Below are positions 1-5,988 of a DNA stretch of 5,988 nucleotides, in pieces (position 1 is the stretch's first letter; every line of letters begins with the position of its first letter). The notes below the pieces were generated by a model. That model ran no database searches. It was not told the DNA's origin and saw only the letters and a program-made list of their open reading frames with translations. Source of the DNA: a virus (Duplodnaviria > Heunggongvirae > Uroviricota > Caudoviricetes). Both the position numbers and the translations under genes were made by a program. The stretch spans positions 1-5,988 of IMG/VR virus record IMGVR_UViG_2778260995_000009; one strand, written 5' to 3'.

Positions 1-582
1 GAATTATCGCTGGCTGAATTATCCTGGTGGGCGGTCTGCAATCAGGTGGCGGACGCGCTACCAGAGGCAGCATTACGCCGTTCGCTGGGGTTGCGTGCGG
101 AAAAAATCCGCTCAATGTACCGTGAAAGCGACATCGTACCGGGAGAGCAGACCGCCACCAGCATACTGAAGCAGCGCACAAAAAATATTGCGCCGTTGCC
201 TCACGCCCACCAGCAACAGAATCCACCACAGGAAAAGACGGTGGTCAGCATTGCCGTTGATCCGGAGTCACCGGCTCAGTATCTCCAGCGCCAGAAACCA
301 CAACGGGAAGAGATGCCTGTATACACGCGTTGGGTAAAAACGCAGAAATGCATGACGTGTGGCAATCAGGCAGATGATCCGCATCACATCATGGGTCATG
401 GACTGGGAGGGATGGGAACAAAGGCTGATGATTTGTTTGTTATTCCGCTGTGCCGTAAATGCCATAGCGAACTACACGCCGGGGTAAAAGATTTTGAAGA
501 AAAACACGGCAGCCAGCTGTTGTTGCTGATTCGTTTTTTAATGCACGCGAGAAATTCGGGTGTCCTGAAGTGGAAAGCATGA
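1..582 (+). CDS. NinG/DUF968-like phage protein with HNH-type zinc-finger motif (5' partial; frame is open from base 1)
   Basis: Frame 1 has no stop from position 1, so the gene begins upstream of the window. C-terminal motif CMTCG...DDPHHI...PLCRKCHSELH is a Cys/His HNH-like signature typical of DUF968 proteins found before rusA in lambdoid prophages. Stop TGA at 580-582 overlaps the rusA ATG region. Confidence 0.6.
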   Translation, partial: ELSLAELSWWAVCNQVADALPEAALRRSLGLRAEKIRSMYRESDIVPGEQTATSILKQRTKNIAPLPHAHQQQNPPQEKTVVSIAVDPESPAQYLQRQKPQREEMPVYTRWVKTQKCMTCGNQADDPHHIMGHGLGGMGTKADDLFVIPLCRKCHSELHAGVKDFEEKHGSQLLLLIRFLMHARNSGVLKWKA

Positions 583-948
583 ATGACTGAACGCATAGAA
601 TTTGTTTTGCCTTACCCGCCAACGGTGAACACTTACTGGCGACGTCGTGGCAGCACATATTTTGTATCAAAAGCCGGTGAGCGTTATCGCCGTGATGTGG
701 CGCTTATTGTTCGCCAGCAGCGACTGAAATTAAACCTGTCCGGACGGCTGGCGATAAAGATTATTGCAGAGCCACCGGATAAACGTCGTCGTGACCTGGA
801 CAATATCCTGAAAGCACCACTGGATGCGCTGACGCATGCCGGACTTCTCATAGACGACGAGCAGTTTGATGAAATCAATATTGTGCGCGGTCAGCTCGTT
901 CCTGGGGGGCGGCTGGGCGTGAAGATTTACAAAATTGAGAGTGAGTGA
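583..948 (+). CDS. rusA: Holliday junction resolvase RusA (crossover junction endodeoxyribonuclease)
   Basis: 121 aa, with LPYPPTVNTYWRRRG near the N-terminus, PDKRRRDLDN, DALTHAG, IDDEQ and GGRL matching my recollection of E. coli RusA (120 aa) including the acidic catalytic cluster. ATG at 583 immediately follows the upstream stop. Confidence 0.9.
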   Translation: MTERIEFVLPYPPTVNTYWRRRGSTYFVSKAGERYRRDVALIVRQQRLKLNLSGRLAIKIIAEPPDKRRRDLDNILKAPLDALTHAGLLIDDEQFDEINIVRGQLVPGGRLGVKIYKIESE

Positions 949-1502
949 TCGTAAATATGATATACCCGGAAATTACAGGCAAAAGCGGCGAGCATTTACG
1001 TCTAAAAACGCTGGAAGCCGTCTGGATCCAGGGGAAATTACGGATGTGGGGGCGTTGGTCGTACATAGGTGGTGGCAAACCAGGAAATATGTTCAATCAG
1101 TTGCTGGCATCCAAAACACTTACAAAAACTGCGATCAATGAAGCTCTGCGCAGAATAAAAAAATCAGGGATTGATAAAACTGAGCTGGAAGCGTTTTTGC
1201 GTGAGATGATCAACAGCAAGCAAAAGAGCGGGCTGGCTTATTGTACTGATGCCGAGGCGTTATGTATCGATCGGGTAATTAGTGAAGTGTTGGCAGAGCA
1301 TCCGGGATTGATTTGTATCCTCCGACAAAGATATGAAGGGCTGGGTATGAGCAAGCTGAAAATGGCAGAACAGTTAAAAAAGAATCACCCTGACTGGAGC
1401 CTGAAAACTTGTAGAAATCGCATTGATGTTTGGTTGGCGATGGCTGAAACCATGCTTTTCCTTCCAATGTGCGTGGCACTTCGGTGCTTTTCTGATAACT
1501 GA
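945..1502 (+). CDS. Late-gene antitermination protein Q (phage 82 / DLP12 QuuD-like family)
   Basis: Position directly after rusA. Motifs W..W near the N-terminus, CTDAEALCIDRV and a C-terminal helical region resemble QuuD-type Q proteins. Start is uncertain: GTG at 945 overlaps the rusA stop, alternative ATG at 957. Stop TGA at 1500-1502. Confidence 0.7.
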   Translation: MIVNMIYPEITGKSGEHLRLKTLEAVWIQGKLRMWGRWSYIGGGKPGNMFNQLLASKTLTKTAINEALRRIKKSGIDKTELEAFLREMINSKQKSGLAYCTDAEALCIDRVISEVLAEHPGLICILRQRYEGLGMSKLKMAEQLKKNHPDWSLKTCRNRIDVWLAMAETMLFLPMCVALRCFSDN

Positions 1503-1531
1503 TGATAGAAGTGCATCAGCTATCAATCTTG

Positions 1532-1560
1532 TTGACGTTCATCAAGGTCTGGACAATACT
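1532..1560 (+). promoter_or_regulatory. Sigma70-like promoter candidate: -35 TTGACG (1532-1537), 17-bp spacer, -10 AATACT (1555-1560)
   Basis: Hexamers and spacing read directly from sequence; lies between Q stop and the ATPase start. Could be the cassette's own promoter or the Q-dependent late promoter pR'. Confidence 0.3.
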
Positions 1561-1591
1561 TACGTTAAGTTCCAACATATGGAAGATAAGA

Positions 1592-2782
1592 ATGATATTT
1601 ACACGATTGAGATTTATCAATTTGTACGCTTTTGAGGATGCAGAGCTTAACCTGTCCTATCCAAGGAAACCTGTAAACATGCCTCTTGATGGGGAGTTTT
1701 TGGCTGGACGGCCTAAATTTTACTATAAAAAAGTCTGTATCATAACGGGGGGAAATGCTTCAGGTAAGACGTCACTAGGGCGAATTCTTTGTGGAATTCA
1801 GGTGTTTCTAAGAACCAAAGAGTTGCGGAGTAATCTGCGAGTGAATAATAAAAATAATGATGCTTCGTTTGAAGTGGACTTTGCTACGGAGGATCATTTT
1901 CATCATCGTTTGTATGTACGCTTTGCTACCAGTGAAGGCGGAGCGCACATAATCAAAGAAATTAAATATGGTTTTGTTCAAATAGCATTAAATGATTCTT
2001 GCCATAAAACCACAGAAAAACTGAATCAACTCTTTTCTGGAAGGGCCCCAGAAGATACAGAATATTTTTTTCAGGAACTAGCTACTGATAGCGAACCAGT
2101 TGTATTGGAGTTTTTCAAGCAACTTAAGTTTTTTGGTGGATGGTACTATTTGTTGTCTGAAACTAAAGAGAGTACCACTGCAATTTCAGGAATGAATAAA
2201 AATATTCTTGAAAGGATAATTCGCACTTTCGATTCAAGTATTATAGGAGTTACCGAGATGCTGGAGTCTGAAAGTGACGGGGATGAAAATAAATCATCTG
2301 CGGTTTATCTGATTAAATTTAAAAACTCTGATTCTCTTGTCGTTACCAGTAAAGGTGAAATAATTAACTCAGACCGTCTTTCTCGAGGAACATACGAGGC
2401 AGTGACGGTAGCGCATTTTATAAGCGCTATTATCTCTGATTGTGAAAGACTAGGTAAGCAATCTCTAATACCATCAATGACTTATTTTCTTGACGAGAAA
2501 TTGGCTTATACACATTCAGAGTTAGAGCGTATGATTGTGGCGCTGATTATATCTAATTTGAAAGAAAATACTCAGTTTTTCTATACAACGCATAACATGG
2601 ATATTTTTGAGTTGGATCTGCCTGTTCACTCGTTCATTTTTATTAAAAAAACGAAAGACTATTCGGAGTTTGTTGAAGCAAATTCAGTTGTTAAAAAAAA
2701 TGACCGTAGCATGCGAAACGCTGTTGAGAGAGATGTCTTTGGTGTCTTACCTGACACATCATTAGTATCGGAGCTACTCTGA
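1592..2782 (+). CDS. ABC/OLD-family P-loop ATPase (AAA_15/AAA_21-like), component A of a candidate two-gene defence cassette
   Basis: Walker A GGNASGKTS (codons at 1748-1771), Walker B YFLDE (2483-2497) and H-loop-like YTTHN (about 2581-2595) in the order expected for ABC-type ATPases. N-terminus MIFTRLRFINLYAF fits the usual start of this family. GGAAG Shine-Dalgarno at 1581-1585. The ORF track's 1502 start adds 30 implausible hydrophobic residues overlapping the promoter-like element. Gene is markedly AT-rich. Confidence 0.8.
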   Translation: MIFTRLRFINLYAFEDAELNLSYPRKPVNMPLDGEFLAGRPKFYYKKVCIITGGNASGKTSLGRILCGIQVFLRTKELRSNLRVNNKNNDASFEVDFATEDHFHHRLYVRFATSEGGAHIIKEIKYGFVQIALNDSCHKTTEKLNQLFSGRAPEDTEYFFQELATDSEPVVLEFFKQLKFFGGWYYLLSETKESTTAISGMNKNILERIIRTFDSSIIGVTEMLESESDGDENKSSAVYLIKFKNSDSLVVTSKGEIINSDRLSRGTYEAVTVAHFISAIISDCERLGKQSLIPSMTYFLDEKLAYTHSELERMIVALIISNLKENTQFFYTTHNMDIFELDLPVHSFIFIKKTKDYSEFVEANSVVKKNDRSMRNAVERDVFGVLPDTSLVSELL

Positions 2783-3315
2783 TGGCGGGGTTGTCTAAAA
2801 TAAGAATAATTTTTGTCGAAGGTGAAACAGAAAACTCTCTTTTTCTGAAGATGAAACAACAGAGAGTTATTGATGCCAAATCAATTGTAAAAAGAAACTT
2901 TTGGCAAGAGAGCATAAGAAATTATGCGATTACTATTCCGAAGGGAAGTGATATACTAATTGTCTTTGATAGTGATGAAGTGGAGCAATCTGCAAGATTC
3001 ATTGAAAATGTAAAGTTCCTTAAAAACAGAGGGCATAAAGTTTATCTTTTGCAGCAGAAAAGAAATTTTGAGGAGGAGTTGGCCTGGTGTTGCGGAATTC
3101 CTGTAAAAAAACTAATTGCTGGGTTCTGTGCAAAAAAAACATCGGGTATAAATGATTTCAAGAGAGATTTTATTGCTTGTAACAATCAACTTTCAAAGTT
3201 ACTGAAAATGGGCATGCAGGAAACTAAGTGGTTTACAAGAGATTTACATGCTGTATTGGAGCCTGTTGCAAGTTTTAAGTCATCTTTTTCTAAACATTTC
3301 AGGTTAACAAGATGA
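2782..3315 (+). CDS. Small TOPRIM-like protein (RloB/DUF4276/AriB-like nuclease candidate), component B of the defence cassette
   Basis: 177 aa. N-terminal IIFVEGETE (conserved Glu codons at 2818-2820 and 2824-2826) followed by ILIVFDSDE (DxD) matches the TOPRIM Glu plus DxD metal-binding arrangement. Start ATG overlaps the ATPase stop (TGATGG at 2780-2785); GGAG Shine-Dalgarno at 2770-2773. AT-rich like the ATPase. Confidence 0.7.
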   Translation: MAGLSKIRIIFVEGETENSLFLKMKQQRVIDAKSIVKRNFWQESIRNYAITIPKGSDILIVFDSDEVEQSARFIENVKFLKNRGHKVYLLQQKRNFEEELAWCCGIPVKKLIAGFCAKKTSGINDFKRDFIACNNQLSKLLKMGMQETKWFTRDLHAVLEPVASFKSSFSKHFRLTR

Positions 3316-3597
3316 TTTATTTTCTTTTTTGTTCAGCTGATTGTTTTTGTTTGTAAAATGTCTTGATTTTTTGCCAATAAACTGTTTCAATCCAGCTACG
3401 CTTCGCAAAGCTGTACCGCGAGGCGAATAGCAGACATGGACACCTGAAAGAATCCGCTTTATGCGAGTTTTTTTATGCCTGAAAAACGGCACAGAACATT
3501 AAACGCGCTGGTAGTTGTGAATACTGGTCTTTCAGCTTGCTGGCTTTTTCGACAAGAGGTATTGGTATATCACGTTAACCAGAAAAGGGGAAAAGGC

Positions 3598-3795
3598 ATG
3601 CTAAAACAGCAGGATATGACCGAAACCGCCAGAGTGGTGTTTAATGAATTAAGCGTCACCGAACCGGCGACCGTCGGGGAAATTGCGCAGAATACTTACC
3701 TTTCACGCGAACGCTGCCAGTTAATACTGACTCAGCTTGTTATGGCGGGTCTGGCAGATTATCAGTTCGGTTGTTACAGACGCCTTCCTCAGTGA
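3598..3795 (+). CDS. Small hypothetical protein (65 aa) with predicted helix-turn-helix / winged-helix character
   Basis: ATG at 3598 preceded by purine-rich Shine-Dalgarno AAAAGGGGAAAAGG. Segment TVGEIAQNTYLSRERCQLILTQLVMAGLA looks like an HTH recognition unit. The track's longer ORF from 3475 has no RBS and an implausible N-terminus. Fold assignment is inference only. Confidence 0.45.
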   Translation: MLKQQDMTETARVVFNELSVTEPATVGEIAQNTYLSRERCQLILTQLVMAGLADYQFGCYRRLPQ

Positions 3796-3850
3796 AGGTT
3801 TTTTAATTTGTGGTAATGGGCGGCTGGTGGGTGTTAGCGGCACCTGCCAG

Positions 3851-3899
3851 CCATCTGCTCATGCGTTGGGGTCACAAGCAAACCTCAGGCCCATCTGCT
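3851..3899 (+). repeat. Two direct repeats CCATCTGCT (3851-3859 and 3891-3899), 40-bp period, each followed by (A)TGCG
   Basis: Read directly from sequence; located in the intergenic region between the small HTH gene and the methyltransferase start, so possibly operator-like sites. Confidence 0.3.
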
Positions 3900-3945
3900 T
3901 TGCGCAAAAGCGGTATGAGCCTATCAGAGAAGTGCTTATTGATCT

Positions 3946-4995
3946 ATGGCCAATACTGTAAAAATATCCAGTTGTGAGTTAATCAACGCTGATTGCCTGG
4001 AATTTATCCAGACCTTACCGGAAAATTCTGTCGATCTGATAGTCACAGACCCGCCATACTTTAAAGTGAAGCCCGAGGGCTGGGATAACCAGTGGGAGGG
4101 CGACGATGATTACCTGAAATGGCTGGACCAGTGTCTGGCGCAGTTCTGGCGGGTACTGAAGCCTACCGGAAGTCTTTACCTGTTCTGTGGTCATCGCCTG
4201 GCATCTGACACCGAAATCATGATGCGTGAGCGCTTTAATGTGCTGAACCACATTATCTGGGCGAAGCCGTCCGGACGCTGGAACGGGTGCAATAAGGAAA
4301 GTCTGCGGGCGTATTTTCCGGCAACAGAGCGCATTCTGTTTGCAGAACATTATCAGGGACCGTATCGCCCGAAAGATGATGGCTATGTGGCACAGGGGCG
4401 CGAGCTAAAACAGCACGTCATGGCCCCGCTGATTTCTTACTTTCGTGATGCGCGTAAATCACTGGGAATAACGTCAAAACAGATAGCGGAAGCCACCGGA
4501 AAGAAAAACATGGCTTCGCACTGGTTTGGTACCAGTCAGTGGCAGTTACCGAACGAGGGTGATTACAACAAATTGCAGGCGTTGTTTGCGCGTGTTGCGG
4601 CAGAAAAACATCAGCGCGGGGAACTGGAAAAGCCACACCACCAGCTGGTCAGCACATACAGTGAGCTGAACCGGCAGTATACGGAACTGCTGAGTGAATA
4701 TAAAAATTTGCGGCGGTATTTCGGTGTGACGGCGCAGGTTCCGTACACCGATGTCTGGACGCATAAACCGGTGCAGTACTATCCAGGGAAACATCCGTGC
4801 GAAAAACCGGCAGAAATGCTGCAGCAGATAATCAACGCGAGCAGTCGTCCGGGAGACCTGGTTGCAGATTTTTTTATGGGTTCAGGTTCAACGGTAAAAG
4901 CGGCGATGGCACTGGGGCGTTGTGCGATTGGTGTTGAGCTGGAGACAGGACGTTTTGAACAGACAGTCAGGGAAGTTCAGGATTTAATCGTTTGA
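3946..4995 (+). CDS. DNA N6-adenine methyltransferase (beta-class, motif IV before motif I), phage orphan-type
   Basis: DPPY catalytic motif near the N-terminus (VTDPPYF) and FxGxG SAM-binding motif near the C-terminus (DFFMGSGST). This order and spacing is typical of phage-encoded N6A methyltransferases. An in-frame TGA immediately upstream fixes the start at 3946. Confidence 0.85.
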   Translation: MANTVKISSCELINADCLEFIQTLPENSVDLIVTDPPYFKVKPEGWDNQWEGDDDYLKWLDQCLAQFWRVLKPTGSLYLFCGHRLASDTEIMMRERFNVLNHIIWAKPSGRWNGCNKESLRAYFPATERILFAEHYQGPYRPKDDGYVAQGRELKQHVMAPLISYFRDARKSLGITSKQIAEATGKKNMASHWFGTSQWQLPNEGDYNKLQALFARVAAEKHQRGELEKPHHQLVSTYSELNRQYTELLSEYKNLRRYFGVTAQVPYTDVWTHKPVQYYPGKHPCEKPAEMLQQIINASSRPGDLVADFFMGSGSTVKAAMALGRCAIGVELETGRFEQTVREVQDLIV

Positions 4996-5044
4996 AACGG
5001 ATGAGATTGCAGAATTAATTACGCACCATTATTATTCTGCTCCC

Positions 5045-5120
5045 GGCCCTTTAGCTCAGTGGTGAGAGCGAGCGACTCATAATCGCCAGGTCGCTGGTTC
5101 AAATCCAGCAAGGGCCACCA
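5045..5120 (+). tRNA. ileZ: tRNA-Ile2 (anticodon CAU, lysidine type; ileZ-like), 76 nt with encoded CCA
   Basis: Hand-folded cloverleaf: acceptor GGCCCTT/AAGGGCC, D arm GCTC/GAGC, anticodon loop CTCATAA (CAT at 5078-5080), T arm GCTGG-TTCAAAT-CCAGC. Resembles E. coli ileX/ileY. CAU could also be Met; Ile2 is inferred from similarity. Confidence 0.85.
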
Positions 5121-5127
5121 TCACATA

Positions 5128-5204
5128 CCGCCATTAGCTCATCAGGATAGAGCGCCAGCCTTCGAAGCTGGTTGCGCGGGGTTCGAGTCCTCGATGGCGG
5201 TCCA
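5128..5204 (+). tRNA. argN: tRNA-Arg (anticodon UCG), 77 nt with encoded CCA
   Basis: Hand-folded: acceptor CCGCCAT/ATGGCGG, anticodon stem CCAGC/GCTGG with loop CTTCGAA (TCG at 5162-5164), T arm CGGGG-TTCGAGT-CCTCG. The C1-G72 start is unusual, so the 5' end could be off by 1-2 nt. Gene symbol assigned by position only. Confidence 0.75.
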
Positions 5205-5217
5205 TTATCTGTACCCT

Positions 5218-5294
5218 GCGTTGTTAGCTCAGCCGGACAGAGCAATTGCCTTCTAAGCAATCGGTCACTGGTTCGAATCCAGTACAACGCGCCA
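5218..5294 (+). tRNA. argO: tRNA-Arg (anticodon UCU), 77 nt with encoded CCA
   Basis: Hand-folded: acceptor GCGTTGT/ACAACGC, anticodon stem ATTGC/GCAAT with loop CTTCTAA (TCT at 5252-5254), T arm ACTGG-TTCGAAT-CCAGT. Gene symbol assigned by position only. Confidence 0.8.
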
Positions 5295-5444
5295 CGCTTA
5301 TTTTTCCAGGCTCGCTTTGGCGGGTCTTTTTCATATCCGCGTCACGTCAGGCGCACATCAAACAAACACAGAATCTTTCAGGGGCGGGGTAGTCAGTGTG
5401 ACGTTCTCTGGAGACCTGTCACTTCCGGGGATAGGTGTTTTTAC

Positions 5445-5468
5445 GGGCTGCTGGTGGCCCTTTTTTAT
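5445..5468 (+). terminator. Possible intrinsic terminator: GGGC...GCCC short stem followed by TTTTTTATTT
   Basis: GGGCTGCTGGTGGCCC (5445-5460) then a T-run at 5461-5470. The stem is only about 4 bp, so this is weak. Confidence 0.25.
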
Positions 5469-5485
5469 TTACAGGAGAAAGAAGT

Positions 5486-5878
5486 ATGTCTGAACCCTTA
5501 TCCGGTTCCGGTACGGCTGCGGCGCTCGGCGGGGCGACGGTATTCGGGCTGTTTACCGGAACGGATTTCGGGATTGTGTTTGGTGCATTCGCCGGGGCGT
5601 TGTTCGTGGCCACGATGCCGCAGGCGTTTTCAGGCTGGCGAGTGGCAGCACATTTTCTGGTGTCATTTATTGTTGGCGTGCTGGGTGCACGTGCGTTGTC
5701 AGCCTGGGTTGCATCAAAAACAGGTTATGACGGTACATCGGCGGATGCACTGTGTGCGGTGCTGGTGTCAGTGATGTCGGTAAAGATTCTGGCATTCATC
5801 CACCAGCAGGATATTGCAGCGCTGATATCCGGTTTGTTCTCCCGCCTGCGGAGTGGAGGTGGTGGCAATGCCAGATAA
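5486..5878 (+). CDS. Hypothetical Gly/Ala-rich membrane protein, possible holin-like lysis protein
   Basis: ATG at 5486 with strong Shine-Dalgarno AGGAGA (5473-5478). Several hydrophobic Gly/Ala-rich stretches (GGATVFGLFTG, IVFGAFAGALFVA, FLVSFIVGVLGA). Sits where lambdoid phages place lysis genes. No specific family recognised. Confidence 0.45.
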   Translation: MSEPLSGSGTAAALGGATVFGLFTGTDFGIVFGAFAGALFVATMPQAFSGWRVAAHFLVSFIVGVLGARALSAWVASKTGYDGTSADALCAVLVSVMSVKILAFIHQQDIAALISGLFSRLRSGGGGNAR

Positions 5879-5988
5879 CCTTTCTGAATTACTGAACGTG
5901 GCGTTATGCACGGTTATCGTGCTGACGCTCTTTTTTTATCGTCGCCGTGATTCCAGACATAAACCGCTGGTGTCATGGCTGGCCTGGC
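5866..5988 (+). CDS. Small hypothetical membrane protein (3' partial, runs off window), start overlapping upstream stop
   Basis: ATG at 5866 overlaps the preceding gene's 3' end (stop TAA 5876-5878). Hydrophobic stretch VALCTVIVLTLFFY followed by RRRDSRHK fits a single-pass membrane topology. Not in the ORF track because it is truncated. Confidence 0.3.

Follow-up and report, generated by a model that had tools for sequence, protein, structure and literature searches.

The ileZ-argN-argO tRNA module and its two flanking cargo slots in the late-regulatory region of a probable mosaic Escherichia coli prophage

In Shiga toxin (Stx) phages, the tRNA genes are always located between q and stx, with a Met/Arg/Arg set in Stx2a, Stx2c and Stx2d phages and a Met/Arg set in Stx2e phages (PMC7366253); some Stx2a phages also encode a 352-amino-acid methylase 3' of Q (PMC10462455). 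A second group for comparison includes Rac-SA53 (KU052037.1) and SerU-LTIIb (KU052038.1), Rac-like toxin prophages of type II enterotoxigenic E. coli (ETEC; Jobling 2016, as cited in PMC5917428). Here, we compare with them the first 5,988 nucleotides of the IMG/VR virus record IMGVR_UViG_2778260995_000009 (class Caudoviricetes). This whole stretch, which we will call the window, carries a Q-like gene, a methyltransferase gene and a trio of tRNA genes, after which a spacer of 191 bp (5295-5485) leads directly to a holin gene.

We can say with considerable confidence that the window is best explained as a late-regulatory region that belongs to a mosaic E. coli prophage. Judged by sequence, its closest relatives are Rac-like in the early region and phiP27-like in the lysis and packaging region. 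The arrangement is real and ordinary, and is already present and annotated in many E. coli genomes: ileZ-argN-argO plus methylase is a conserved, widespread linker module in lambdoid and P27-like prophages of E. coli and does not mark out Stx phages. The module is flanked by two independent slots, one between Q and the late promoter (slot 1) and one between the trio and the lysis genes (slot 2), which hold toxins, defence systems or nothing, depending on the lineage.

The tRNA trio and its phage relatives

In the window, ARAGORN called three tRNA genes and no more, each on the + strand; the Rfam tRNA model (gathering score of 29 bits) also found each of them, and Rfam at a permissive threshold found nothing further across 3300-5988. 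The preliminary description, made from the letters alone, had placed an Ile2(CAU)-Arg(UCG)-Arg(UCU) trio here, about 190 bp from a membrane-protein gene. Both calls hold, the exact distance being 191 bp and the gene that of a Phage_holin_8 holin. It had also equated the trio with ileZ-argN-argO, which is borne out by alignment with the Stx2a-phage and phiP27 genes and with ileX, and by PGAP: the UCU gene is identical to the argO of Stx2a phages, the UCG gene is three positions off argN, and the CAU gene is identical to the Stx2a-phage copy and differs at one position from phiP27 ileZ. As far as gene sequences can tell, the trio and the ileZ-argN-argO set of Stx2 phages are one and the same.

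The CAU tRNA should be named with some care. ARAGORN labels it tRNA-Met, a label derived from the anticodon, and tRNA-Met is the name used in many Stx2 phage records, in PMC7366253 and in PMC7946995; on this reading, the gene would encode an elongator methionine tRNA, and the trio would be Met-Arg-Arg and not Ile2-Arg-Arg. The gene, however, matches K-12 ileX at 68 of 76 positions, with the stem changes paired, and is clearly unlike K-12 metT, to which the match is far poorer. The PGAP label of the matching CAT-anticodon gene in the closest E. coli records is tRNA-Ile, and the acceptor stem possesses the pairs C4-G69 and C5-G68, which are said to be the TilS determinants of Ikeuchi et al. 2005. 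The gene sequence, therefore, points to an Ile2 type tRNA (lysidine-dependent, ileX/ileZ class), and we regard a methionine tRNA as very improbable.

Matches to the window were found in 296 of 50,697 phage records, 173 of which are named Stx-converting. The matches are confined to 3463-5341/5354 at ~89-90% identity (Stx2a, Stx2c and Stx2d phages, and phiP27), a block made up of a small helix-turn-helix (HTH) gene, the methylase gene, the trio and the hairpin that immediately follows argO; on the holin side (5436-5987), phiP27 is the one phage that matches, with 86% identity. Phage phiP27 (NC_003356.1; 90% identity over 3469-5341) has the same order, that is, HTH gene, methylase, ileZ, (argN), argO, hairpin, cargo, holin, holin. 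It differs in its slot 2, which holds stx2eA, stx2eB and L27 (1649 bp between window positions 5341 and 5436), in its slot 1, which holds a GIY-YIG nuclease gene where the window has an AbiL-like island, and in its Q-like gene, which is unrelated to that of the window and encodes 126 amino acids. In Stx2_EH1910 (LC567834.1), the HTH gene, methylase, ileZ-argN-argO and post-argO hairpin are in common with the window at ~89%; stx2AB lies ~90 bp 3' of argO and is followed by iraM, nanS-p and a lambda-type lysis cassette. The stx2eA start of phiP27 is likewise ~90 bp 3' of argO, and the stx genes of phiP27 and the Stx2a phage fall between the window-equivalent positions 5341/5354 and 5436.

As an aside, the 101 bp between ileZ and argO in phiP27 (6652-6752) are a decayed argN, the ends of which align with argN while the anticodon arm has been replaced. 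The phage is nonetheless annotated, and described in the literature, as a two-tRNA phage.

An Stx-phage-like architecture, as proposed in the preliminary description, is thus a fair term for the methylase-tRNA module 3' of the candidate late terminator (89-90% identity) and does not extend to Q. The Q-like gene of the window is of the DUF1133 Rac type, and tblastn with the DUF1133 protein finds 32 of the 50,697 phage records, none of them (0) Stx-converting; the Q of Stx2a phages belongs to a different family and goes with a lambda-like pR' (TAAATT ... AACGAT). Rac-SA53, in contrast, has a Q of the same family (67% amino-acid identity), both Rac-SA53 and SerU-LTIIb have a holin pair of the window's type, and the methylase of SerU-LTIIb is ~88% identical to that of the window. 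They differ from the window in that their tRNA sets are different or absent and their DNA identity is 72-82%. Between Q and the holin, Rac-SA53 carries as cargo (6998-8229) a pertussis-like AB5 toxin operon, eplBA, without the tRNA trio; SerU-LTIIb has tRNA genes 5' of its holin, and the LT-II genes of Rac-like toxin prophages are located 3' of the endolysin gene. In SerU-LTIIb, holin1 is duplicated and two tRNA pairs precede the lysis genes.

How common the module is can be seen from a census of 5426 complete E. coli genomes. At 80% coverage or more, the trio with its hairpin (5045-5341) was found in 2288 of these; when partial matches are included, it occurs at 7597 places in 3061 genomes, with up to 13 per genome. 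The argO-stx2A junction, on the other hand, is present in 599 genomes, that is, the trio module is found in ~4x as many, which makes the stx-free trio the rule. To call the window an stx-free relative of the Stx phages is therefore correct, but what the term describes is the normal state and not a slot that lost stx. For surveillance, finding the module should not be taken to mean that a toxin phage is present or that a toxin was lost recently.

Three further observations concern the trio. That it might represent host tRNA genes or an attachment-site remnant was considered and rejected, as the genes lie inside the prophage (between methylase and holin) and are identical to phage copies. An exact-pattern scan for the argN-argO junction, with one genome per species, matched a single contig and is uninformative on the spread beyond E. 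coli. The contig JAFAFL010000075.1 (2918 bp), from a metagenome-assembled genome named "Proteobacteria bacterium," encodes a methylase and the same trio (89% identity); it probably stems from an Escherichia-type prophage, a piece of which was binned into that assembly.

The slot between argO and the holin

Two genomes of ETEC strains together account for the window. AST19 (NZ_AP043612.1) is colinear with 3362-5988 (99.3%), possesses the same 191-bp spacer and junction, and is without the island; it shares with the window the trio, spacer, junction and holins (99.5-100% over 4996-5988). B7A (NZ_CP035812.1) is colinear with 1-5429, continues with 646 bp that encode a TerB family protein and DUF3927, and resumes at 5435; it shares with the window Q, the AbiL-like island, the HTH gene and the methylase, while its holin is 88.6% identical.

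Reading the spacer from argO onward, one first meets the hairpin and T-run that end the Stx-shared module (predicted energy of -11.9 kcal/mol). It has the form AGGCTCGC-loop-GCGGGYCT followed by a T-run, and across six relatives, phiP27 and the Stx2a phage among them, the stem is kept and the loop is variable. Past ~5341-5354, the Stx phages diverge into their stx leader, whereas the window, AST19 and B7A share another sequence, a leader (5342-5429) that in B7A extends as far as the TerB start codon and that neither phiP27 nor Stx2a phages possess. On the other side of the slot, B7A, phiP27, E. coli W, C41 and Sx181 have in common a further ~50 bp of right arm, upstream of the holin, with the hairpin AAAAGGCATCTGCGGGTGCCTTT. 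The window and AST19 are without this stretch and its hairpin, their homology beginning only at GTGTTTTTACGGG, and the homology between B7A and phiP27 starts ~135 bp to the left of the window junction.

The contents of slot 2 vary among the relatives, being stx2e, stx2a, or TerB plus DUF3927. In a sample of genomes with the right arm, the same holin is preceded by Thr/Gly tRNAs in E. coli W, by an AraC-family gene and one Arg tRNA in C41, and by Ile/Arg/Thr/Gly tRNAs and a hypothetical gene in Sx181. Since other tRNA sets and other cargo are found before the same holin, the pre-lysis interval is a general cargo site. Within the census, the P27-type holin right arm (start at ~5434) was found in 350 genomes, the junction of TerB leader and TerB in 164, and the empty junction of the window type (5300-5560 contiguous) in 19.

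The right flank is the same for five different cargoes, and the window is without part of that flank yet has the TerB leader, which argues for a deletion; the likeliest origin of the empty slot is the removal of ~650 bp, and not the loss of stx. Starting from a B7A-like ancestor, such a deletion would have taken away both the TerB/DUF3927 cassette and the cargo-closing hairpin, and would have left the TerB leader fused to the region upstream of the holin. The emptied slot could then have spread by recombination within the conserved module.

The slot was also searched for traces of earlier contents. No gene lies at the stxAB position, and tblastn with StxA, StxB, TerB and DUF3927 gave only chance-level matches in the window (E of at least 0.2) and none in the slot, which agrees with the earlier statement that the usual toxin slot is empty. 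The 191-bp spacer has no open reading frame with an Stx match, and a repeat search of it returned only the halves of the two T-run hairpins. The Fur box belongs to stx1, not stx2. The proposal that 5295-5485 might contain a Fur box or remnants of an stx promoter found no backing: the best Fur box match in the spacer was 10/19, equal to the median of shuffled spacers, and no stx promoter remnant was detected in the spacer beyond the shared post-argO hairpin.

Two other histories of slot 2 have to be weighed. Had the empty slot been the ancestral form, TerB/DUF3927, stx2e and other cargo would have been inserted later into a spacer like that of the window; this would suit a spacer that is short, clean and without a coding remnant of any cargo, and would agree with the usual view of such cargo sites as sites of insertion. 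It fits poorly, though, with the ~50 bp of right arm (including AAAAGGCATCTGCGGGTGCCTTT) that five relatives with unrelated cargo share and that the window and AST19 are missing, because cargoes that were inserted independently would not all have come with one and the same flank. Moreover, 88 bp that in B7A form the leader as far as the TerB start codon are still present in the window, and few genomes have the empty form (19 vs. 164 for TerB and 350 for the right arm), so that we consider an ancestral empty slot unlikely. The window could also be a former Stx phage (of the Stx2e or Stx2a type) from which stxAB was deleted. Prophages are known to lose stx, the methylase-tRNA module shares 89-90% identity with that of Stx phages, and the holin side is phiP27-like. 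Against this, the homology to Stx phages ends at 5341-5354 and the next 88 bp are the TerB leader of B7A, not an stx leader; tblastn found no stx remnant in the window; argN is intact here and decayed in phiP27; and the Q type of the window is not seen in Stx phages. There is, in our opinion, only a very slim chance that stx was ever lost here.

Several points count against the account that we prefer, namely a mosaic prophage with a slot emptied by deletion. The polarity of the deletion is inferred from six sequences and not from a phylogeny, and the microhomology at the junction is only 2-3 bp. Promoters and terminators were assigned from consensus and conservation, and the fold of the whole spacer is not better than that of shuffled spacers (z of -1.36). 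The window is 6 kb, and the likeness to phiP27 past the holins is known only from relatives. Finally, TerB and stx2aB use 0 codons of the trio, which makes the link between tRNAs and cargo partial, in a small sample.

Recombination and the island of slot 1

Identity to the two ETEC genomes changes along the window. Over 1448-4995, B7A is 99.5-100% identical, while AST19 is without the island (1448-3361) and 98.8-99.4% identical over 3362-4995. Over 4996-5429, identity is 93.7% to B7A and 99.5% to AST19, and over 5435-5988 it is 88.6% and 100%, respectively. Because of these piecewise identities, the window reads as a recombinant that is B7A-like to ~4995 and AST19-like from 4996, with the crossover apparently somewhere in 4996-5340, inside the conserved methylase-tRNA module. 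The island and the empty slot were found together in none of the 5426 complete E. coli genomes, and each half has already been sequenced and annotated separately. A mildly useful by-product is a clear example of what would be a slot emptied by deletion and then spread by recombination.

Beyond the window, B7A and phiP27 are 90-96% identical through the HNH endonuclease, terminase and portal genes (96% for terminase and portal), and genes for a P27-family small terminase, an HK97-type head and a contractile tail are present in the closest relatives.

The island of slot 1 has a promoter-like site of its own at 1532-1560 and occurs, at 80% or more window coverage, in 7 of the 5426 genomes. The preliminary description had called it an ATPase/TOPRIM island, a label that is reasonable for an AbiLi-like ATPase gene followed by a gene with TOPRIM-like motifs. 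AbiL is grouped with PARIS and RloAB among the systems that combine an ABC ATPase with a TOPRIM/OLD protein, with mechanism unknown (PMC13064643); membership of the island in AbiL, as a putative defence system, is only partly shown. The 177-amino-acid protein has no meaningful match in Pfam or NCBIfam and no sequence relative with a solved structure. Among its 18 homologs, E13, G14, E17, D63, D65 and N95-F96-E97-E98-E99 are invariant, and the resulting EGxxE, DxD and NFEEE motifs form a TOPRIM-like pattern.

Elsewhere, slot 1 holds the GIY-YIG nuclease gene in phiP27 and is empty, with 128 bp, in AST19. It had been supposed that the large cargo was placed on the Q side of the tRNAs instead of in the toxin slot. 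B7A, however, has both slots filled, so the two slots are independent and the idea that the island stands in for missing cargo in slot 2 is not supported.

Neighbouring genes, late control and codon use

Genes were assigned by using Pfam, PADLOC and the annotation of near-identical records, and the features of the window are collected in Table 1.

Table 1. Positions of the genes and sequence elements of the window, with the evidence for each
Feature	Position	Strand	Evidence
DUF968/HNH protein, 3' part	46-582		
RusA	583-948		
Q-like late antiterminator candidate, DUF1133 family, Rac type	945-1502	+	Pfam DUF1133 E 8.4e-99
Cargo island of low GC content that fills slot 1 (Q to late promoter)	1448-3361	+	34-37% GC
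AbiLi-like ABC ATPase	1592-2782	+	PADLOC E 7.6e-26
AbiLii-like TOPRIM-motif protein, 177 aa	2782-3315	+	Weak AbiLii match
Candidate late promoter pR', TTGATT-17-TTCAAT	3363-3391	+	Conservation and position
tR'-like intrinsic terminator, weakened in window	3452-3474	+	Hairpin and T-run, position
Small winged-helix (TrmB-like, HTH) gene, first of Stx-phage-like module	3595-3795	+	Weak Pfam TrmB, E 2.7e-3
DNA methyltransferase, N6_N4_Mtase family	3946-4995	+	Pfam E 6.5e-45; PADLOC MTase_II E 3.7e-159
Promoter-like site TTGCAG-17-TATTAT, then G+C-rich discriminator	5007-5035	+	Read from sequence
tRNA-Ile2 type, anticodon CAU (CAT in DNA), ileZ homolog	5045-5120	+	ARAGORN; Rfam 72.5 bits; ileX alignment; PGAP
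tRNA-Arg, anticodon UCG, argN homolog	5128-5204	+	ARAGORN; Rfam 56.0 bits
tRNA-Arg, anticodon UCU, argO homolog	5218-5294	+	ARAGORN; Rfam 70.1 bits
Hairpin and T-run directly 3' of argO, terminator-like, end of Stx-shared module	5308-5331	+	Terminator scan, 8 pairs
Probable remnant 5' leader of TerB/DUF3927 cassette	5342-5429	+	Colinear with B7A up to TerB start codon
Probable deletion junction of slot 2, ...CCGGGGATAGG joined to TGTTTTT	5428-5435	.	B7A and phiP27 colinearity breakpoints
Second hairpin and T-run, just 5' of holin ribosome-binding site, start of P27-type right arm	5445-5466	+	
Holin 1, Phage_holin_8	5486-5878	+	Pfam E 2.3e-22
Holin 2, 3TM, Phage_holin_3_7, cut at window end	5868-5988	+	Pfam E 5.7e-8

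The small HTH gene has annotated homologs in phiP27 (L23) and Stx2a phages, and the methyltransferase gene has the same position in these phages. On the lysis side, holin 1 is 100% identical to that of AST19 (the holin region of phiP27 being 86% identical) and holin 2 overlaps its 3' end, which puts both overlapping holins of the P27-type lysis cassette within the window; an M15 endolysin gene follows holin 2 in AST19 and B7A, beyond the window end.

With 31.5 bits, the Q-like protein is also above the cutoff of Phage_antitermQ (26 bits), and depositors label homologs of the DUF1133 protein as antitermination protein Q in Rac-type phages; no sequence homolog of it with a solved structure was found. 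The left boundary of the island (1447/1448) is inside the 3' end of the Q-like gene, and the last ~18 codons differ from those of AST19 and E. coli W, with the DUF1133 profile still matched from end to end.

TTGnnn-17-TTCAAT, the block GCTTCGCAAAGCTGTAYCGCGAGGCGAA, and a hairpin with a T-run recur, in this order, in four prophages that have a DUF1133 Q, namely those of the window, AST19, E. coli W and C41. The 30-nt block (~3399-3428) is identical in all four except for one Y (C/T) position, and may be a Q-utilisation or pause region for this family of Q; it also matches SerU-LTIIb. In E. coli W and C41, the set begins directly after the Q stop codon, whereas in the window the island separates Q from the pR' block. 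A hairpin and T-run are found at the tR' position in AST19, B7A, phiP27 and the Stx2a phage, with stem sequences that differ, and the Stx2a phage has its lambda-like pR' directly 5' of this hairpin. From position and conservation, we infer that 3363-3391 is pR' and that 3452-3474 is tR'.

Two changes in the tR' stem, C3453T and G3466A, are unique to the window, and represent 2 of only 3 differences from B7A in 584 bp; this pair is the one peculiarity that is specific to the lineage. The predicted energy of the hairpin is -8.5 kcal/mol in the window, compared with -17.1 in B7A, AST19 and JNE21-009. One might speculate that the weakened tR' permits Q-independent read-through from pR' into the HTH gene, methylase and tRNAs, the host having domesticated the module as a constitutive supply. 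This is a long shot, and presupposes that pR' fires constitutively, as in lambdoid lysogens; if true, the host would obtain a constitutive methylase and decoders of AUA and AGA, which would aid translation of the AGA/AUA-rich AbiL-like genes.

The trio itself may be transcribed from its own promoter-like site, by Q-modified late transcription, or both. The promoter-like site ends 9 nt 5' of the first tRNA gene, and its two hexamers are the same in phiP27, the Stx2a phage, AST19 and JNE21-009, which is weak evidence in a region that is ~90% identical overall. Since the trio is located 3' of tR', Q-modified late transcription would include it.

By its anticodons, the trio would be expected to read AUA, CGA/CGG and AGA/AGG, which are rare codons in E. 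coli. There is a long-standing idea that phage tRNAs help to express AT-rich acquired genes, and the codon counts agree with it only partly. The sum of ATA, AGA, AGG and CGA per 100 codons is 5.5-9.0 in the AbiL-like genes, the GIY-YIG gene of phiP27 and the stx2A genes, and 0-2.3 in the methylase, holin, endolysin, large terminase and capsid genes. In the TOPRIM-motif gene of the island, 10 of the 11 Arg codons are AGA.

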